This document shows positions 20,801 to 27,317 of a stretch of 27,317 nucleotides of DNA, one piece after another. A program made the position numbers and the translations under genes. Numbering within the stretch: position 1 is the stretch's first letter; every line of letters starts with the position of its first letter. The notes below the pieces were generated by a model, which did no database searches, was not told the origin of the DNA, and saw only the letters and a program-made list of their open reading frames with translations. This DNA is from a virus (Duplodnaviria; Caudoviricetes): positions 1 to 27,317 of IMG/VR virus record IMGVR_UViG_3300046779_001651. One strand, given 5' to 3'.

Positions 20801-22345
20801 CGTAAGTGCAGATTCATCTACTGAGATCTCCCAGCCTTCTGGAATCTCATTGCCAAATGGATCAAGTCCCTTGTCAAGGTTGGCACGGATCTCTGCGATC
20901 TGTTGTGCCTGTTCCTTTTCCTGCTCGGCAACCTTGATCTTTACAGCTTCCCAGTACGCCTTGTTTTCCTCTGAAGCCTTATCAGCAAGTTGCTTCTTTT
21001 CAGCTGACTTTGTCTTAACCTCGTCGTAGTAGTCTTGGTCATTCTCGATGAAGTCAATCGTGTCAGCCCAGCTTTGAGAAAGACCGACTGTCTGTTCTTT
21101 AACAATGCCATCTTCATCGTCACGGCGTAGGAACATCCATGGGGCATTTTCCTTATCCCATGCGTGCTTCTTTAGACGGTATCCACCAGCCAAATCCTTT
21201 GTTGCGATGTTTCCATCAAGAACCTTTGGTCCAGCTATCGGCGAGTTTGCCTTGTTTTGGTTGTTGGCCTTTACGAACGCATCGTTGAGAACCTGCATGT
21301 CAGTGCCTGGCGCGTACCAGTCAACGCGGTAGCCGTCGTCTGTCTTGAAAACCTTGTCAGGACCATCCTCGCCGTCCTTCTTCTCGGAGACAAGTGTCCA
21401 ACCGGCAGGAACGTCAATTGGCTGCAGGCTTGAAAGCTCAACCGCGTCAACGTCAGACGGAAGTGTTACTTCTGCTGAATCATCAGGAAGTGCTGAGTCA
21501 GGAAGGATTGCCTTGATTGCCTCAACCTGAGACGCAGGGACGTCATATAGACCATCCTTGAGTGTTGGGTCGTTACGAACCTCGATTTGGAAGCCATCAG
21601 TCTTGTCAGAGTTTGCAACGAACTTGCCGACGATTGACGAGATCTTTCCGTCAAGACCCTTTAGGAAGAACTGCATTCCTCCACCCTGCTCAGCAAATCG
21701 ACCCTTACGGTCACGACGCTGCGCACGGGCACGGGCTGAGCGGGAGGCGGAGTCATTTCCACCTGCTGCAATGATTGCAACGACCGTCTCGAGCTTCTCC
21801 GTGGTTGAGATAAGAATATCCTGTGGAACAAGTCCAGCTGCAACCATGCTAAGTCGTGCAAGTGCGTGCTGATGCTCTACTGAGCCAGCCTGTGATCCAT
21901 ATACTGATGCAACGATGCCACGCACGGAGTCATCAATGCGTGGATCAGCGGCAATCCATCGGGCAACAACATTTGAGTACGCTGAGGCGGTCATGGAGTG
22001 CCCACGAGTTGACAGTGGGTGACCGATTGGCAAAAGGTCACGGTGGTTTGTTACACCTACAGGTACGTTTCCATCAACTGCAAGAGTTAGGAATGACGCT
22101 ACCTCCTTGTAGGCGGCAAAAAATCGTGATTGACGGTCTAGGCCAGCCGTCTTGTTTAGTGAGCGTGACGCAACGGTCTCGATGTCACGTTGGGTGACGC
22201 GTCGTTCTGCTGGAACACGTCCGTTTTGCTCAGCGGCAAGCTCACTAATAGCCTTACGTAGACTTTTAGCGTTCCTTGGCTTTACCTTTGAGGCAACGGA
22301 TGCTTTGTCCTGCTGCGCAATTAGGTCGTTTAGATACGACAGCAT
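14888..22345 (-). CDS. 2485-aa multidomain head-associated effector protein (R-S-E ADP-ribosyltransferase, kinase-like, WYL, SH3-like, C-terminal ART-like)
   Basis: MYRGV..RSFS..EENEF; YYVK..NEVLA..DAWLANWD..NII..RIDTGGSL; AI..G.EISF.Y..R.V.P; QHN..GLLS..DYVF..YELMF. Lies between portal and protease, where MuF-toxin fusions often occur. Confidence 0.75.
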   Translation of the reverse strand: MLSYLNDLIAQQDKASVASKVKPRNAKSLRKAISELAAEQNGRVPAERRVTQRDIETVASRSLNKTAGLDRQSRFFAAYKEVASFLTLAVDGNVPVGVTNHRDLLPIGHPLSTRGHSMTASAYSNVVARWIAADPRIDDSVRGIVASVYGSQAGSVEHQHALARLSMVAAGLVPQDILISTTEKLETVVAIIAAGGNDSASRSARARAQRRDRKGRFAEQGGGMQFFLKGLDGKISSIVGKFVANSDKTDGFQIEVRNDPTLKDGLYDVPASQVEAIKAILPDSALPDDSAEVTLPSDVDAVELSSLQPIDVPAGWTLVSEKKDGEDGPDKVFKTDDGYRVDWYAPGTDMQVLNDAFVKANNQNKANSPIAGPKVLDGNIATKDLAGGYRLKKHAWDKENAPWMFLRRDDEDGIVKEQTVGLSQSWADTIDFIENDQDYYDEVKTKSAEKKQLADKASEENKAYWEAVKIKVAEQEKEQAQQIAEIRANLDKGLDPFGNEIPEGWEISVDESALTPSSNPIQFFETRIEDVASYKRTEQGYTGTLTHTKDGGLQGLYQNQKFDNWADAEQGFAETVEADVNARREAALDVLEPFDTDGELRDMFDNGATGEELLEKLKEDKDWASALEDYETRGYVDLPQPAQKSAWAAFEKKLNAIRNVPAEFKPFGKQDSADEIKATLPDSKKASDLEVGDKILVKGEPKTIEKISSTDSGDMVEWSEGKKKKFKIFEDPNEDVALAPEAEEIAPEPEVAPEPEAPAPVEAPKAATPTGDIDWTTPEGAYKLYMPEDYEPEGPTGQDSPDYTDDPKVLANRFGSEDLKAALAQALRGIKDFATEFMDDFYDDLEDEEEGEKKSKPGPKKKKPQAKVKNASGYGSLEFSEGDEYVPAEAIYTALKEQGEDAELITAELYDLGTGESKNQDMVESLRKGEDVKAQEPSVLIDDFDKDSMDIVALNEEVAQPDAAVLATSQMQQLANDGEDNVFIRDIAKDLISGKNDNLGEFLGKYIGWALNGSDDEEQAYRALHGMLLSADGGLTQKGDETMLWEAIGTAIQSYNGSEPTPEEIDAVFEKFGYYSDLVRSKKKITDGSESIDDKNSLAGSFYRLVVASSQPNTTTMYRGVPLAIGSDQLASYTEKDGVISLDARSFSNDKAMAGKFAGAFGGNPDHAAVIFNVKAGKASVSPISNISMFGEENEFLGWGDFKIVDVRESVNAAGKTLYNVDIEKLDKRGMVLEGLDDDYQDLLLTNEEVDLPGSYYTPSPEPYVVDDEKNAEVHPEYTDSPAYIARMWATDDLVNVFIGGVEDGEGKALLEYPIEDGFEATVDIEAVRDALQIQGVDTNQILKDVASTADDIEASEPIDEPAESVVEDPINDIINGFGQEYDLEGFEQVGPQQGSNQGGTYKDAQGTEYYVKTPKSDNHADNEVLASALYKLAGVNAAEMKVGSADDGKRKIFSEILPGNVLNDVELTPETKKQIQEGFAIDAWLANWDVAGLVNDNIIIDEDGNAFRIDTGGSLLYRAMGAPKGSAFGGEVTELETLRDPKKNAASAALFGDMTDEDIKNSASKLLDISHDDIDNLVDSLVADEESATQLKDTLKARRNFILEKYDLLGEDTSLIVENVKVEDEETQTPEPEQPTPPAPEVPSDAPGNPYVTSDGVPIEPGMKVRHKKTGEVGTVVKYDKGNSNYVYVQGDDGTIKNKSTKQLESVNGGGGGSPEEPTPEAPSAPETTPEVQPEVIPEPEPEAAPEASNAPEGPVVIDTSKSVEDAVSQIEQAIADGKEISFYYNGKLRNVKPQSVWQNPKNGKINVYAVDLGDENKVKNFTVQNMQAIPEGEESVSAQKPEAPAAEKPLQLHAQWIKDLMAQKGNEITDEQAIKIRDLIEENGLIEKWSSADDADVIDAITEVLGPDLTDDELAPAPESSVDPATTEEQITDVPDAEPEAPETIEEPAIAPGAKVTDKKGKTGTIVKGPNKDDYVYVEFDDGTKGWRSVGSVSTTGEFNNTYKKPTTKKAPKGKITPAGVSAVFVENPAEWDSSDFPDVPSLSDAIALVQNPDITSAGMKGASAAIDSDSIEDLDVRIMRVQDAEGNDGIRLKFKLTSWAGNEKAKELLNIPQDQYEANGIKKDSLSIDRIDIGPDGTGKISKDKNAYHGEGLTWTITTKDGIVIKFNRANYDATAKLSTSKYGRPTAFHNLVQIQAPADATNEQITEALKVAGVSDVRPATQADARILVENRLMSIFDGKVDATKNPKGADREASLQRIKDKYGITADDVVVSTGASGRIETRLSEEGAKKIVEATGSPTAIQHNISVPGFYGKSDEFESRTDWITNLLATPQEGLLSTTTRWTEGIGTSGMSSAADVGTGGADYVFTKPVKVADGKTYGVSGMVMYFDPVKLYQRLDFYANSYDSFGKRVSNQDVINAAKVGAYELMFKHRVSFDDLDSIIVNNQATRTAVIQKLRQKGITEIGGRPLEAMILIGSNVSV

Positions 22346-23016
22346 TAGTTTTCCTCTCGCACAGACTTAGGAAGTAGATCCGCGTCCTTTGACATGTGTA
22401 ACGCCGATGCTAGGATCATCGCACGCTTAAAAGGTGATTCGTTTTCACGTACGCCACGCAGCCAAGCCGCGCGAAGTGCTGGAATGATCTCATAGCCTTG
22501 GCCAGAAAGTTCCGCAAACGCAAGAAGTGCGTGCTCTGGCGAGTCATACTCGTGTTCTGGTCTTAAAAATACATGTGTGCTTGCAACTAGAGCAGCTGAA
22601 TACGCCAGCGAGTTCTCACCGTGCGTTGAGCGTGGGTGTCCTGACGGCAAAAGATCGTTGTCCTGCTTGTAGTTTGCGTTTGCAGGGCGACCAGACTTTA
22701 AGAGACGCAGGAACGCATTCACACGCGCTAGTGCCCACTGGTCACGGGTTTTACCGGGACGGTGTGAGCTTGAATACGCTCCTGCGCCACGACGGTATAC
22801 CGCCTTAAGCATGGAGAGTGTTGCCTTGCGGCCTTCAGGAGCCTTCTTGTTGTGCTCCTCCATCTTGTTACGAAGAGTTTCCTCGGTCTTCTTGGAGAAA
22901 GTTATCTTTCCCTTGCCGTCAGCACTGCCAGGCTTGTTCTTATCAGAGCCGTAGATCTTGTCCTTTGCAGGTGCAGGGCGTGATGACGCAAACTCGCTAG
23001 GCTGTTGGTTGCTCAT
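22345..23016 (-). CDS. Basic hypothetical head-module protein (VYRRG.GA..SHRPG..QW..ARV domain)
   Basis: 223 aa overlapping the portal stop; the motif recalls DUF5824-like viral domains (from memory, unverified). Confidence 0.7.
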   Translation of the reverse strand: MSNQQPSEFASSRPAPAKDKIYGSDKNKPGSADGKGKITFSKKTEETLRNKMEEHNKKAPEGRKATLSMLKAVYRRGAGAYSSSHRPGKTRDQWALARVNAFLRLLKSGRPANANYKQDNDLLPSGHPRSTHGENSLAYSAALVASTHVFLRPEHEYDSPEHALLAFAELSGQGYEIIPALRAAWLRGVRENESPFKRAMILASALHMSKDADLLPKSVREEN

Positions 23017-24721
23017 TTGCCTCTTCCTCTACTGGCTGTGTCTCAGCGGGAGTCTCACTAGGTCCCTTGAGAAGTCGTTCAACCTCAGGTGGAATTGGCG
23101 CAACGCTTGACGCCTGCGACGCAAGACGTGTTGCCTTCATGACCTCAGGAGCGACGGCGTTGAGCATCGCCTCAGTAAGTTCTGGTGTGACTGAGCCCTT
23201 CTCAATGAGAAGACGCAGCGCAACTTCCTTAGCCTCTGGAGCATCGGACTCAGAGAATCCGTGTGCACGACGCCAGGTGTCGAATGAAACGGCCATGCGG
23301 TCGAAACCAGAGTCAGCGTCTGCCGCACGGTCATTACGTGTTGCAACCTGGCTTGGGTCGTACCAAACGCATACGCGGTCAACGTCAGCTGGGTTAAATC
23401 CATTTGCCAACAGGTAAGGACGTAGGTACACGATTGTCAATGCGTCTGAGATGAGAAGCATCAACGGCTCGATGTGTGCCTTGTATAAGGACTCGTCAAT
23501 CTGTAGGGCGTTTGAGTACTTGACATTTGCAAGACCTGTAACGACATCCTTTGGAACGTCTAGACCCTGCAGGATGCGCTCAAGCACGCGATCCGCGCGT
23601 TCAGCAAGGGAAGGGTCGAACGAGCGCTCAAACTTGAATTGCTTGATCTTGTCACCAAGCTCAGCAGGACCGCGAATAATCAAAGGAACAACCGCACTGG
23701 CTGAGTCCTCGTCACGAATCGGCGTGGTCATCGCGTCGATAAGCTGGTCTTCAAACTCGTCGGCTGCCTCCTCAGGAGTCATCTCCGTTGAGGTAATGTC
23801 CGTCTCATCATCAAATGGATAGTCAGAGTCGGCTGAACCAGCGACTGACAAACCATCTGGAAGGTAAAGTGCTCCAGCGTTGAGGCGTGAGCGTGCGGTC
23901 GCACGGAACGTACGGTTTAGAAGTAGAAGCTCAGCGCAAAGATCGAGGATACCGCGAAGGCTTGAATCCGCCTCATCGGAGAAACGTGGGTGTGCCTTCC
24001 AGATACGTCCAACGAACGCACCCTTTGGAATGTTGATGCCACCCTTTGAGTTTCCGCCGCCTGACGCAAACGCAAGCTCGCGACGTGGAAGGATCGAGTA
24101 GTTACCCTTTGCGTCAATCTGAAGCTCATCAGTTGAGCGAATATCCCATGACTCTGGAAGACCAGAACCAGGACGCTCGGGGAACTGAACGAGGTAGCAC
24201 TCGCCGGTGACTGAAAGATTTAGTGCCGCATCCTTGAGCATGCCAGCCTGGCCACCGTATGCGGAGTCGAGGCGGGAGATGGCGCGTTCTGCCGCGCTGG
24301 CAAGACGAGCGTCAACTGAATCAGAGTTGCGGATTGGAATAGGTGCCTCAGTTGGATCCTGAACGATAGCCGCGTAAAGACGGATACGGGATACAACGGA
24401 TGCAACAAGGTTAAAGGCGTACTTGATTTCGCCGATCGCGTCGTAGTATTCCCACGCCTCGTTTTGCCACGCAGCGGAACCAGACATGCGTCGGTTCTTG
24501 AACTGCTCAGCCTCGCCCTTATCGTTAAGCTTTACCTGTGCGGCAGCGGCAGTTAGAGGGCGTGGTGATGAGTACGCGCCGGACTGTGCAGGTGCGACAC
24601 CTGGACCGACAAACTGAATACTTGGATTAGACAGACGAGTCTGCGAACTAGCTGATGCGCGAAGTGCCGCGCGGCGGGCTGCTCTATTTGTTGGTTGAGG
24701 TTCCTTGCGGAAGATGCCCAT
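22997..24721 (-). CDS. Portal protein
   Basis: WQ.EAW.YYD.IGE, L.V.GE.Y, RIW..HP...EADS, SA.VP and GLD.P motifs of cluster B-type portals; GAGGAG RBS. Confidence 0.88.
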   Translation of the reverse strand: MGIFRKEPQPTNRAARRAALRASASSQTRLSNPSIQFVGPGVAPAQSGAYSSPRPLTAAAAQVKLNDKGEAEQFKNRRMSGSAAWQNEAWEYYDAIGEIKYAFNLVASVVSRIRLYAAIVQDPTEAPIPIRNSDSVDARLASAAERAISRLDSAYGGQAGMLKDAALNLSVTGECYLVQFPERPGSGLPESWDIRSTDELQIDAKGNYSILPRRELAFASGGGNSKGGINIPKGAFVGRIWKAHPRFSDEADSSLRGILDLCAELLLLNRTFRATARSRLNAGALYLPDGLSVAGSADSDYPFDDETDITSTEMTPEEAADEFEDQLIDAMTTPIRDEDSASAVVPLIIRGPAELGDKIKQFKFERSFDPSLAERADRVLERILQGLDVPKDVVTGLANVKYSNALQIDESLYKAHIEPLMLLISDALTIVYLRPYLLANGFNPADVDRVCVWYDPSQVATRNDRAADADSGFDRMAVSFDTWRRAHGFSESDAPEAKEVALRLLIEKGSVTPELTEAMLNAVAPEVMKATRLASQASSVAPIPPEVERLLKGPSETPAETQPVEEEANEQPTA

Positions 24722-24762
24722 GAATTAGTTCTCCTCGTCGTGTAACGGAACGTGTTGATTCA

Positions 24763-25059
24763 CTAGCCATCAACCCGTGCAGCTATAAGACCAACAGCGG
24801 CGGATAGCGCTAAGACAAGCATAATCGCGATTGTTGGTACAGGTACTATAGTATACAGGATCACGGTAAGTGATGCGACCCAAAAGCTTGTACACCAGTA
24901 GCAAGAGATCAGATAGCCGATTCCCTTTTCATATCCCCAACGGTCCCATATCCAGTTTCGGATGCCCTCGGTGATGGTGTCTTGAATAATCAGGCGGGTC
25001 AGTCGATAGACCCCCAGTATGAGAATTATCAGATGTGATAACTGTATGTCCATGTCCAT
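24763..25059 (-). CDS. DUF1360-like membrane protein
   Basis: L..YRLTRLI..D.I and L.SC.WC.S.W motifs with hydrophobic helices; AGGAG RBS supports a start at 25059 rather than 25164. Confidence 0.75.
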   Translation of the reverse strand: MDMDIQLSHLIILILGVYRLTRLIIQDTITEGIRNWIWDRWGYEKGIGYLISCYWCTSFWVASLTVILYTIVPVPTIAIMLVLALSAAVGLIAARVDG

Positions 25060-25066
25060 GTGTCTC

Positions 25067-25432
25067 CTATTTCCCTGGGTCCTTGCTTGAATAAACGTGT
25101 CGATATGGATTCCAACTACGTAGGCGTGAGCCACAGCCGCAGTTTTCGTCCTTCTTGTAGGCAATCATCTTGCCTGTCTTGGTTACGACGTGCGAGTCCT
25201 GGGTACGAGACCCTGACTTATTAAACTCCACGTGTTCCTCGTTAAATACGATTACTGGTCCCTGTGGACCGTCATGGGCAACGATGATACGCTCAGGCGT
25301 TACGACAACGCGTGCCTTCGTGAGCTGGTAGGCTCCAGCCGTCACGGGGCTTGAGTGTAGATCAGCTAAAACCATTGACTCCGGAGGAGCCACGGCGATA
25401 AAGGCCGGGAAGACATCGTGAATGATCTGCAT
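25067..25432 (-). CDS. Hypothetical protein with C-terminal CGCGS motif
   Basis: 121 aa, TAATG coupling to the upstream gene. Confidence 0.7.
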   Translation of the reverse strand: MQIIHDVFPAFIAVAPPESMVLADLHSSPVTAGAYQLTKARVVVTPERIIVAHDGPQGPVIVFNEEHVEFNKSGSRTQDSHVVTKTGKMIAYKKDENCGCGSRLRSWNPYRHVYSSKDPGK

Positions 25433-25923
25433 TATTTTCCTAGCCTTCGTGCCATCGCGCGATACGTAACTCCGGCGGCCTCGGCAAGCTCCTTGACCGT
25501 CACGTTCTTTTCATTAAGTGCAATACATATTTCAGTTAATGAAAGGTTGGCACGTGCCTGAGGTGAATCGGGGTTCATCTTCGATCGGTATGTTCTGGCA
25601 AGCGGAGCGTGTAGGCGAATCTGCGCAAGCTCGTCGGCCGAGATCCCTGGCGACACTGGACGACGGGATACATACCCTGTACGAACACGTGGTTTAGGAA
25701 TCGGTGTCTCTAGAGGCGACTGAGTGTATCGACGAACCATCCACGAGCGAACGGTTGAGCGTCGGCGTGGTGGATTAAAGGCATTGCCCATGGACTGCAG
25801 CGTCCAACCTGCGTTAAACAGGTCGTTTAGTCGCGTGGCAAGTTCATCATCGAAAAGCTTGTTGAGAATCGCCGCCTCAGTTGCGGGTAGGCTCTGTTGA
25901 CGAGCCGGGCGACGTTTTTCCAT
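25432..25923 (-). CDS. Helix-turn-helix DNA-binding protein (two HTH-like segments)
   Basis: GWTLQSMGNAF..RRSTVRSW and VTVKELAEAAGVTYRAMARRL; likely leaderless start at 25923 (alternative 25935). Confidence 0.72.
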   Translation of the reverse strand: MEKRRPARQQSLPATEAAILNKLFDDELATRLNDLFNAGWTLQSMGNAFNPPRRRSTVRSWMVRRYTQSPLETPIPKPRVRTGYVSRRPVSPGISADELAQIRLHAPLARTYRSKMNPDSPQARANLSLTEICIALNEKNVTVKELAEAAGVTYRAMARRLGK

Positions 25924-25949
25924 GTGTACAACCATAACACAAATTGTAC
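25924..25949 (-). promoter_or_regulatory. -10 element TATGGT inside a GTACAA-N12-TTGTAC inverted repeat
   Basis: TATGGT at 25936-25931, 7 nt before the ATG; repeat arms at 25926-25931 and 25944-25949. Confidence 0.45.
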
Positions 25950-25957
25950 TTTATGAG

Positions 25958-26030
25958 TGCGCCAAGTAGGATTCGAACCTACAACACCTAGTTCCTAAGA
26001 CTAGTGCCTCTACCGTTGGGCCATTAGCGC
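25958..26030 (-). tRNA. tRNA-Leu(TAG), short variable loop, no encoded CCA
   Basis: Acceptor GCGCTAA/TTGGCGC, discriminator A, anticodon arm CTAGT-ctTAGga-ACTAG, T arm GTAGG-TTCGAAT-CCTAC. Confidence 0.92.
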
Positions 26031-26036
26031 GTGGAA

Positions 26037-26603
26037 CTACCTTACGCTACCTGGAACCCAAAGTACATCACCGCGTGAGCGATTTTCGTGGCGGGCAAGA
26101 ACGAACAAAAGATCTGACAGGCGATTTACGTACTTGACCGCAAGTGGGTTTATCGCGTCGCCGTGTTCCTCAATGGCAACCCAGATGCGAAGCTCAGCCT
26201 GGCGAACGCTCGTGCGTGCGATGTGCAGGAGTGACGAACTTGGGGTACCCGCAGGTAGAACAAATGAGTGAAGTGGCTCGAGCGTCTCATTAAAGAGATC
26301 CGTCATCTTCTCAAGGTAGTTGATGTGCTTATCGGTGATGCGAAGCTTAGGCTGGTCCGTCACTGGCGTCGCAAGATCGGCGCCAACGTCAAACAGGTCG
26401 TTTTGCACCTGTTGGATAACGGTGACGATCTCCTCATTTACCTCATAGCCAAGCGAGACAACGAAGCCGATGGTGGAATTTGCCTGGTCAATCGCCGCAA
26501 GTGCAAATATGCGGGAATCCGTCTTGGAGGTGCGGGATAGATCACCGAGTGACGTGGTTCCAGTGTCACCGGTCTTGGTGTATATGCGTGTTAGGTGTAC
26601 CAT
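26037..26603 (-). CDS. pduO: ATP:cob(I)alamin adenosyltransferase, PduO type
   Basis: IYTKTGD.GTT.L, QNDLFDVGADL, L.SFVLP, LH.AR..VR.AE and Y.NRLSDLLFVLAR signatures; ATG at 26603 (the 26612 start lies inside the tRNA). Confidence 0.92.
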   Translation of the reverse strand: MVHLTRIYTKTGDTGTTSLGDLSRTSKTDSRIFALAAIDQANSTIGFVVSLGYEVNEEIVTVIQQVQNDLFDVGADLATPVTDQPKLRITDKHINYLEKMTDLFNETLEPLHSFVLPAGTPSSSLLHIARTSVRQAELRIWVAIEEHGDAINPLAVKYVNRLSDLLFVLARHENRSRGDVLWVPGSVR

Positions 26604-26604
26604 G

Positions 26605-26677
26605 CTGGACACCCTGGACTCGAACCAGGAACCTACGAGTTAACAGCTCGTTGCTCTGCCTATTGAGCTAGTATCCA
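26605..26677 (-). tRNA. tRNA-Asn(GTT), no encoded CCA
   Basis: Acceptor TGGATAC/GTGTCCA, discriminator G, anticodon arm ACGAG-ctGTTaa-CTCGT, T arm CCTGG-TTCGAGT-CCAGG. Confidence 0.93.
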
Positions 26678-26682
26678 AAACT

Positions 26683-26710
26683 AATAAACCCCGCTTGCGC
26701 GAGGTTTATT
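26683..26710 (-). terminator. Terminator-like hairpin with GCAA tetraloop
   Basis: AATAAACCTCGC-GCAA-GCGGGGTTTATT followed by AGTTTT. Confidence 0.75.
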
Positions 26711-26896
26711 GTGAATGGGTGGATTGCCTTTTACCACCACGGTCTAGTCAGCAATACCAGTGTAGTACCGCTTTGAACCGACCACCAGTTTATCCCGCTA
26801 AGGATTAGCCGCTAAGCCCCAGTGTGCTATCTCGCCCCTTGCTGACAAAGAGCTTCGTATCAGCCACATTCCACTTAGCCCGTCGGCCTCGTGTTA
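26711..26896 (-). ncRNA. Candidate structured non-coding RNA of unknown family
   Basis: Bounded by a promoter and a terminator-like hairpin, no ORF in the track, several complementary segments. Confidence 0.6.
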
Positions 26897-26902
26897 GATA
26901 TA

Positions 26903-26931
26903 ACTATACGTGGTACTCCAAAGAAAGTAAA
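26903..26931 (-). promoter_or_regulatory. Sigma70-type promoter TTTACT-N17-TATAGT
   Basis: -35 at 26931-26926, -10 at 26908-26903, exact 17-nt spacer. Confidence 0.7.
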
Positions 26932-26935
26932 CTAC

Positions 26936-27316
26936 TTACGCAGATTCTTTTTTGAGAACGTTGATTGTGTATTGCTTGTTAAACTTACCCGCAACGATGT
27001 ATTGCTGTCTACGTCTCCACCTACGGGCTGCCTTCTTGATGGCAAACTGCGCACCAACGTGGGTAATCGCATATCCGTGGGTAACACGTCCCCAGCGAAG
27101 TGTGCCATCTGGGTAGCGCTTCTCGTGCGGGTAGTCAACGTCATAGAACCAGCCGGAGTAGCCCTTGTGTCTTTCAAGCTTAACGCGAAGTGTTCCCGGC
27201 TCAGGCATCGGCTCCTCGATAAGCTTTGGCACGATGGGTGCACGACCAAGCACGATGTCAATATCGTCCTCGTCGGTTAACGCGTTGGCGATGTGCTCAC
27301 GCATGGCATCAATCTC
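26936..27316 (-). CDS. Hypothetical protein, possibly 5'-truncated by the window edge
   Basis: ORF 26936..27304; the frame remains open to the right edge; same strand as all other genes. Confidence 0.6.
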   Translation of the reverse strand, partial: EIDAMREHIANALTDEDDIDIVLGRAPIVPKLIEEPMPEPGTLRVKLERHKGYSGWFYDVDYPHEKRYPDGTLRWGRVTHGYAITHVGAQFAIKKAARRWRRRQQYIVAGKFNKQYTINVLKKESA

Positions 27317-27317
27317 A

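Follow-up and report, generated by a model that had tools for sequence, protein, structure and literature searches.

The manA motif (RF01745) was described in 2010 with an alignment of which 36 rows are considered here (PMC2864571, Additional file 5), and that description lists it as probably cis-regulatory and a candidate riboswitch, commonly found 5′ of metabolic genes. In the text of a preprint (10.64898/2026.07.01.735769), five manA RNAs assemble in vitro, at about 3 mg/mL, into pentamers, octamers, decamers and a 60-mer through L5-L7′, L8-L9′, L3-L8′ and L6-P6′ contacts; A0F1 forms the 60-mer, 67AA, pho_A28C and pho34_A767 form decamers, and 6FAB forms an octamer or decamer. Besides these two sources, manA is treated in passages of the Rfam 14 update, the CaCoFold work and the report of cyanophage S-CREM1, and a paper on a Bifidobacterium megaplasmid notes manA beside tRNAs. 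Our literature search, which had most subscription journals outside its reach, found no paper on twin-loop contacts or on manA in actinophages, and the supplement of the preprint may cover the form described here.

The locus and its source phage

The window, the whole stretch of 27,317 nucleotides analysed here (IMG/VR record IMGVR_UViG_3300046779_001651), is a virus fragment with an estimated completeness of 16% that carries a head-and-tail operon. Its capsid protein is nearest to that of the Actinomycetia phage DSL-LC01 (76% over the covered part), with other matches in Microbacterium, Arthrobacter, Gordonia and Streptomyces phages (110 records). Because this protein is closest to those of actinobacterial phages, we infer an actinobacterial host, and the source is likely a large phage infecting freshwater Actinobacteria. 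Two other genes on the minus strand stand out in size. One encodes a 2,485-aa protein of no clear family (22345-14888), where DSL-LC01 has a gene of 3,289 codons; the other encodes a 1,606-aa fused capsid-maturation protease (14188-9368) between the portal and capsid genes, where DSL-LC01 has three separate genes.

The RNA and its neighbors are collected in Table 1. A promoter-like site, an RNA of about 185 nt and a hairpin behind it had been pointed out in the earlier note, and all three are confirmed in the sequence of the minus strand. The absence of an open reading frame, also claimed there, holds as well: no ORF of at least 50 aa was found on the RNA strand across the 185-nt element, and the lengths of the 78 relatives introduced below are spread over all three frames (30, 16 and 32), on which grounds a small ORF was rejected. 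The same note called the RNA stand-alone, which is right as far as its own promoter goes. The tRNA-Asn begins 6 nt past the hairpin, however, and the promoter scan found no promoter-like site between the two, so that read-through into the tRNA is likely.

Table 1. Predicted features of the RNA and its surroundings, in window coordinates; helix numbers were assigned by us, by order, to match Rfam
Feature	Position	Strand	Remarks
Promoter-like site, sigma-70/sigma-A-type	26903..26931	-	-35 TTTACT 26931-26926, 17 nt, -10 TATAGT 26908-26903
Predicted transcription start	26895	-	7 nt past the -10 box
manA-family RNA, two-hairpin (trimmed) form, 185 nt	26711..26895	-	Rfam match, relatives, covariation
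P1 hairpin	26872..26893	-	loop GACG 26884-26881; GACG in 74/78
P2 closing helix, 5′ strand	26867..26871	-	pairs with 26717-26713; 98.7% of cells paired, double changes in 4/5 pairs
P3 arm	26826..26864	-	loop L3 26846-26841, pairing with 26752-26747 in L8
P4 three-way junction with hairpins P5 and P6	26781..26825	-	P5 loop 26815-26810, P6 loop 26801-26796; both UUAGCG
P8 arm	26740..26780	-	outer helix; GC 26771-26770; inner hairpin 26769-26753; L3 partner 26752-26747
P9 hairpin, 11-nt loop L9	26718..26738	-	GC 26727-26726 pairs with 26771-26770
12-pair hairpin, weak U tract	26683..26710	-	probably a leaky terminator or 3′ processing hairpin
tRNA-Asn(GTT)	26604..26677	-	ARAGORN/Rfam; likely second RNA of the manA transcript, presumably co-transcribed
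Cob(I)alamin adenosyltransferase gene	26037..26603	-	PF01923, E 2e-54
tRNA-Leu(TAG)	25957..26030	-	ARAGORN/Rfam

The cob(I)alamin adenosyltransferase gene fits tightly between the two tRNAs: its likely ATG lies within two bases of the tRNA-Asn CCA end, and tRNA-Leu follows 6 nt past its stop codon. With both tRNAs abutting the gene, tRNA processing would free a leaderless mRNA. A PHROG match was not found for the protein. In the fetched flanks of the relatives, which vary from less than 0.1 to about 2.5 kb, only one other contig (L021/L081) carries such a gene, 49% identical and upstream of manA, and a general linkage between manA and the adenosyltransferase was rejected on this count.

Seven sequencing runs were found with the window stretch itself. 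The DNA run X1, possibly the source, covers all of it, and over 19.9 kb of the phage the DNA run X4 has three exact pieces scattered elsewhere. In X5, a freshwater metatranscriptome, the sole wholly aligned contig of seven is a 154-nt contig at 26719-26872 with 3 differences, the other six pieces being partial matches of 31 to 41 nt. In X3, labeled RNA-seq and flagged as "probably DNA", the only contig on the 19.9 kb is a 165-nt one at 26712-26875 with 1 difference. Both contigs lie inside the RNA, at low depth (8.9 and 3.7) and with no loose end, and give a weak hint of a discrete transcript. They both end at 26872-26875, the border of P1 and P2, as P1 removal, a reverse-transcription stop or an assembly break could produce. 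No piece of the RNA run X6, which comes from the study of the likely source sample, falls on the RNA, an absence among contigs that proves nothing.

Relatives and family assignment

Relatives were collected by pattern scans on the P9 region, which gave 31 and 69 viral loci, at least 119 metagenome loci and 44 genome loci. From the 267 matches listed (186 distinct), we kept 78 distinct sequences, the window copy included, that were full-length and scored at least 40 bits against the profile of the first set. Left out were duplicates, five truncated or partial matches, one variant with three hairpins (L053) and roughly 100 sequences with low scores, which include canonical manA copies and chance matches. 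Only one of the 44 matches in GTDB genomes (L225) scored as a member, several of the others being chance matches in coding sequence. With three queries against 50,697 phage records, BLAST turned up the RNA nowhere but in 13 Corynebacterium phage records and in Rhodococcus phage Francesca, always unannotated and between tRNA genes, and plasmid BLAST gave no match. The unannotated copies include those of C3PO (L001:2453-2639; NC_042085.1 at about 43197-43011), Francesca (L002:2437-2619) and Darwin (L003:936-1124); in the C3PO and Darwin records, several tRNAs are annotated on the strand opposite to the Rfam calls.

The carriers are not one phage lineage. The window capsid protein matches 5 of 30 carrier contigs and 2 of the 5 near-complete ones, so that they span more than one phage group. 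In a loose first look, DSL-LC01, the closest cultured phage by capsid protein, had no match with either model, and the RNA is thus not essential to its group; Atuin and Sixama, two further capsid-related cultured phages, likewise gave no match. The sole match among the four capsid-related cultured phages is in the Microbacterium phage Pumpernickel (L273:1444-1680, NC_073468.1 at about 83.9-84.1 kb), a divergent and longer manA-like RNA between two tRNAs that reaches a weak 28.7 bits with the model of the 78 sequences and was unfound by the Rfam model.

The earlier note had taken the RNA for a member of an unrecognised family, with an Rfam search as the check on its novelty. At the curated cut-off, Rfam reports two tRNAs only in the window, which is why the RNA looked unrecognised, but a permissive scan matches it to the whole manA model (model positions 1-192) at 38.8 bits (E 1.6e-8), 16 bits short of the gathering score of 55.2. 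The remaining permissive matches, besides tRNA and manA, are weak (E ≥0.04) and lie on the tRNA or the 3′ hairpin; among the nine Rfam matches at E ≤10 there is no ribozyme or riboswitch family other than manA, and a tRNA or tmRNA identity was rejected for want of any call by ARAGORN or Rfam.

Most of the relatives first scanned score higher than the window copy itself. The nearest of them (L018, 81% identical) reaches 62.1 bits on the manA model and passes the cut-off, as do 17 of the first 20 relatives scanned, all 20 of which match manA; the copies in Francesca, C3PO and Darwin score 72.9, 47.2 and 37.1 bits. A second, more divergent set of 20 contains 19 that match manA, among them eight loci of other manA forms that pass the cut-off, while of its 11 two-hairpin relatives 3 pass, 7 fall below and one (L041) is unmatched. 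The matching is reciprocal, since a covariance model built from the 78 finds three-hairpin manA RNAs over their full length at 45-65 bits (L040, L067, L069, L098, L162 and L211).

Continuity with the founding members is also visible in the rows of the 2010 alignment (PMC2864571, Additional file 5). The two-hairpin form makes up 2 of the 36 rows considered; the row JCVI_SCAF_1101668133563/1274-1446 is by eye of the same type as L109, L115 and L155, and the row BABC01000017.1 resembles L116. The core manA fold (P1, the closing P2, P3, the branched P4, P8 and P9) is present, with compensatory changes in every helix. The trait of the majority form, three P4 hairpins with a 4-bp L5-L7 pseudoknot, is absent and replaced by two hairpins and a 2-bp kiss, but the structure line of the 2010 alignment has separate columns for two short hairpins, so three hairpins are not required of all manA RNAs. 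An L8-L9 pseudoknot is present with a compensatory change, but it is 2 bp long and uses another L8 site than the one annotated. The position in the 5′ UTR of a metabolic gene that underlies the "cis-reg" label is not shared: an ORF led by a Shine-Dalgarno (SD) sequence comes first downstream in only 5 of the 78.

Because the relatives pass the cut-off, the founding rows match and the models find each other's members, membership is secure despite the low score of the window copy, and the RNA is almost certainly a manA RNA. The family is already catalogued, and the trimmed form already stands in its founding alignment; the earlier observation was thus largely right and its novelty wrong, the RNA being a new member of manA.

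Several further variants turned up in the scans. L053:988-1230, about 240 nt long, is an enlarged manA whose additional P4 hairpins make it a bridge between the two forms (100.8 bits on the model of the 78 sequences, 37.5 on that of Rfam). L106, L157, L165 and L203 represent a further compact form (69-75 bits; 55.7 for L203) in which the partners of L9 and L3 lie side by side in L8, and another conserved structured stretch lies just upstream in L106, L157 and L165. L216 consists of the P9 end only, behind a promoter-like stretch, and is possibly a deleted copy.

Fold and loop contacts

Over the 78 sequences, 89.7% of 4,099 cells of a 54-pair model are paired, and 46 of the 54 pairs show double changes. 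Covariation amounts to 0.499, against 0.167 in shuffled and at most 0.12 in slid controls (33-43% of cells paired in the latter), a comparison in which the model had been drawn up from the same data, by mutual information and inspection, and the shuffle control is therefore not independent. The search pattern fixes most letters of P9, and those columns count as no evidence; four loop positions, including the L9 partner, are free in the wider pattern. On its own the single sequence folds only modestly better than its shuffles (z -2.40, with 1 in 200 as good), its minimum-energy fold misses the P4 junction, and RNAalifold recovers 30 pairs only, owing to alignment slips in the variable arms.

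These data support the earlier picture of a conserved, covarying and pseudoknotted non-coding RNA with its own promoter beside tRNAs, and they sort the pairings proposed with it. AUCC/GGAU and GGUGG/CCACC are P6 and P9, the core of GUGGAAUG/CAUUCAC is P2, and all three hold. The pairing GCGGUACUA/UGGUAUUGC corresponds to the inner hairpin of P8, which is variable and competes, through its outer two pairs, with the contacts of L3 and L9. Two others are not conserved: GGCCGAC/GUCGGUU is paired in 55% of cells, with 326 of 500 shuffles as high, and GCUAAGU/GCUUAGC in 40%, with 70 of 500 as high. The proposed long-range pairing of 26846-26839 with 26754-26747 survives in its 6-bp core, the L3-L8 contact, where all six pairs show double changes. 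A run of at least five pairs is found in 48 of 50 distinct L3-L8 loop combinations and the contact is weak in three of the 50 (L109, L186 and L155), figures to be read beside cross-pairings of which 64% also reach five pairs, the relatives sharing loops.

The L8-L9 contact has two base pairs, GC/GC in 74 sequences and GG/CC in 4 with none half-changed, which takes 3 parsimony steps on a weakly supported tree. The two identical UUAGCG loops covary as well: the L5-L6 combination is GC/GC in 63 and AC/GU in 14, with L041 doubtful (raw columns, G-C 63 and A-U 10), and on a tree built without those columns the switch from GC/GC to AC/GU falls in at least three places, a clade of eight, a clade of five and L116. 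From this pattern we infer a 2-bp kiss between the twin loops, G26812-C26797 and C26811-G26798, bearing in mind that covariation is blind to pairing within versus between molecules and that two base pairs make a weak interface. The two pseudoknot lines of the 2010 alignment (PMC2864571) mark contacts of the three-hairpin loops and of L9 with the tip of the inner P8 hairpin; the twin-loop kiss, the relocated L8-L9 contact and L3-L8 are therefore not annotated there.

The P4 junction has 0, 1 and 3 unpaired bases, with 0-1 nt between the two hairpins. Of the junction strands, the one that returns to P4 is longest in 43 of 55 distinct P4 domains, and 10 yielded no junction. The unpaired junction bases U34, G35, G39, A40, A72 and G128 (alignment A2) are invariant, and the 3′ end reads ...CAC in 74 of the 78. 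A conformational switch, with L3 competing against the 5′ strand of L8, was considered; in the window no contact of the L8 3′ strand excludes another, and two alternative pairings are open to the 3′ part of L8 in some relatives.

Genomic context, proposed assembly and comparison with known systems

Upstream of the 78 starts there is a tRNA T-arm motif in 50, a -10-like hexamer in 21 and neither in 7, and 36 of the RNAs start 0-2 nt behind a tRNA called by ARAGORN. The hexamer, 4-9 nt upstream, occurs in 21 of the 28 copies without an upstream tRNA arm, versus 3 of the 50 with one. Taken alone, the window promoter does not exceed chance (3 matches found versus 3.4 expected in 22000-27317); it is credible because relatives without an upstream tRNA carry a -10-like hexamer at the same spacing. 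Copies led by a tRNA and copies led by a promoter share their start point (AAC in most), which suggests a defined mature 5′ end produced either by initiation or by cleavage at the tRNA 3′ end. A terminator-like hairpin comes next in 16 of the 21 promoter-led and 15 of the 50 tRNA-led copies, and a tRNA lies within 60 nt downstream in 44 of the 78. The same arrays contain elements that resemble tRNAs and have a T-arm but go uncalled by ARAGORN, three of them with Rfam tRNA scores of 43-44 bits, as well as further unannotated hairpin modules (100-240 nt); such elements or modules lie upstream of the RNA in L010, L016, L020, L023, L027, L031, L043, L066, L084 and L149 and downstream in L024, L107 and L178.

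This context bears on the cis-regulatory label. A riboswitch would control tRNA-Asn and the adenosyltransferase gene through the 26710-26683 hairpin, and the 2010 listing, the metabolic gene 108 nt beyond that terminator-like hairpin and the alternative pairings of L8 could all be read that way. Yet the hairpin does not overlap the conserved fold, the adenosyltransferase recurs in a single contig, upstream of the RNA, and with tRNAs flanking the RNA and an ORF first downstream so seldom, a 5′-UTR switch does not fit the two-hairpin form; we regard this reading as improbable. Still less credit goes to a self-cleaving or processing ribozyme cutting tRNA precursors, which the earlier note had raised and for which the position between tRNAs and the invariant junction bases would speak. 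The permissive Rfam scan offers no such family, the 21 promoter-led relatives include many without a nearby tRNA, and the manA transcripts that were purified and imaged for the preprint (10.64898/2026.07.01.735769) were full-length, with no mention of cleavage in its text. The RNA is instead probably a discrete trans-acting RNA, and in the window it likely heads a manA-tRNA transcript.

The preferred reading, to which we give a probability of roughly 55%, is that copies of the RNA join, by pairing of their loops, into a closed multimer free of protein, by analogy with the cage-forming manA RNAs. Transcription from the promoter in Table 1 would read through into tRNA-Asn and be followed by 3′ trimming, and relatives within tRNA arrays would obtain the same 5′ end through cleavage behind the upstream tRNA. 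The core closed by P2 would fold with its L3-L8 and L8-L9 contacts, and the twin UUAGCG loops may then join by their two base pairs. As only 0-1 nt separate the hairpins and the longest strand runs toward P4, an intermolecular kiss is likelier than an intramolecular one. By the rule for family C junctions, as set out in passages of PMC3575829 and 10.64898/2026.09.15.751775, the second hairpin would lean toward P4 and away from the first loop. The self-complementary GACG loop of P1, which shows no covariation, may contribute a further contact of two-fold symmetry; loops of this sequence assist the dimerisation of retroviral RNAs (PMC516450), and the reference list of that paper cites a kissing complex of two G-C pairs.

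A monomer is the main competitor, possible though clearly less probable: a compact trans-acting RNA with all three contacts within one molecule, perhaps a mimic or decoy in the shape of a tRNA, a substrate of tRNA-processing enzymes that also binds a protein of the host or phage. It has four arms around P2, with P9 (5 bp) placed like a T-arm and carrying a loop, opening U...AAU before CC, that we take to resemble a T-loop; the start flush behind tRNAs in 50 of the 78 would suit a mimic, as would the stop of both RNA-library contigs at the P1/P2 border. Against mimicry, an acceptor end is lacking because P1 abuts P2, the RNA closes with CAC in place of CCA, and neither ARAGORN nor Rfam calls a tRNA. 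The junction geometry disfavors an L5-L6 kiss within one molecule, and all five manA RNAs in the text of the preprint (10.64898/2026.07.01.735769) oligomerised.

For the self-assembling RNA, we would guess, tentatively, at a stable multimer that serves the infecting phage in trans, as scaffold or decoy alongside its tRNAs, with no part in switching the next gene. Equally speculative is the idea that the twin UUAGCG loops and the GACG loop, at two base pairs each, make this a minimal self-assembling cage subunit whose shell or lattice is abundant in actinophage-infected cells; if so, C3PO (Corynebacterium vitaeruminis) and Francesca would offer the first in vivo test of manA cages. If they hold, the results add a contact map of the trimmed form (the 2-bp twin-loop kiss and the relocated L8-L9 contact) that predicts assembly interfaces, counts showing that the "cis-regulatory" label is unfit for the two-hairpin form, and cultured phages, growing on laboratory hosts and carrying an unannotated copy, in which manA function and cages in vivo become testable.

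GOLLD is associated with phage tRNA arrays. Like the assembly proposed here, GOLLD and ROOL are protein-free multimers of structured RNA, as described in PMC12286853, but they are several hundred nt long, with an unrelated fold and no Rfam match in the window. Closer at hand is the manA of PMC2864571, whose alignment has in its majority three hairpins (with GUGGUG, GNRA and ACCA loops) where the window RNA has two with identical loops; the window RNA has neither the GNRA hairpin nor the 4-bp kiss of the GUGG/ACCA type. The L9 partner sits at the base of the inner P8 hairpin in the window RNA versus its tip in the 2010 annotation. Settings differ too: those manA RNAs come from cyanobacteria and Photobacterium and occupy 5′ UTRs, whereas the form in the window belongs to phages of Actinobacteria and has its own promoter and a downstream tRNA. 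Compared with the cage-forming manA RNAs, which may be of either subtype (two- or three-hairpin), the window RNA would make no L6-P6′ contact, having no GNRA hairpin, and its predicted kisses are shorter. If our order-based mapping of the helices is right, the same named loops touch in both: L3 with L8, L8 with L9, and L5 with the last hairpin of P4.
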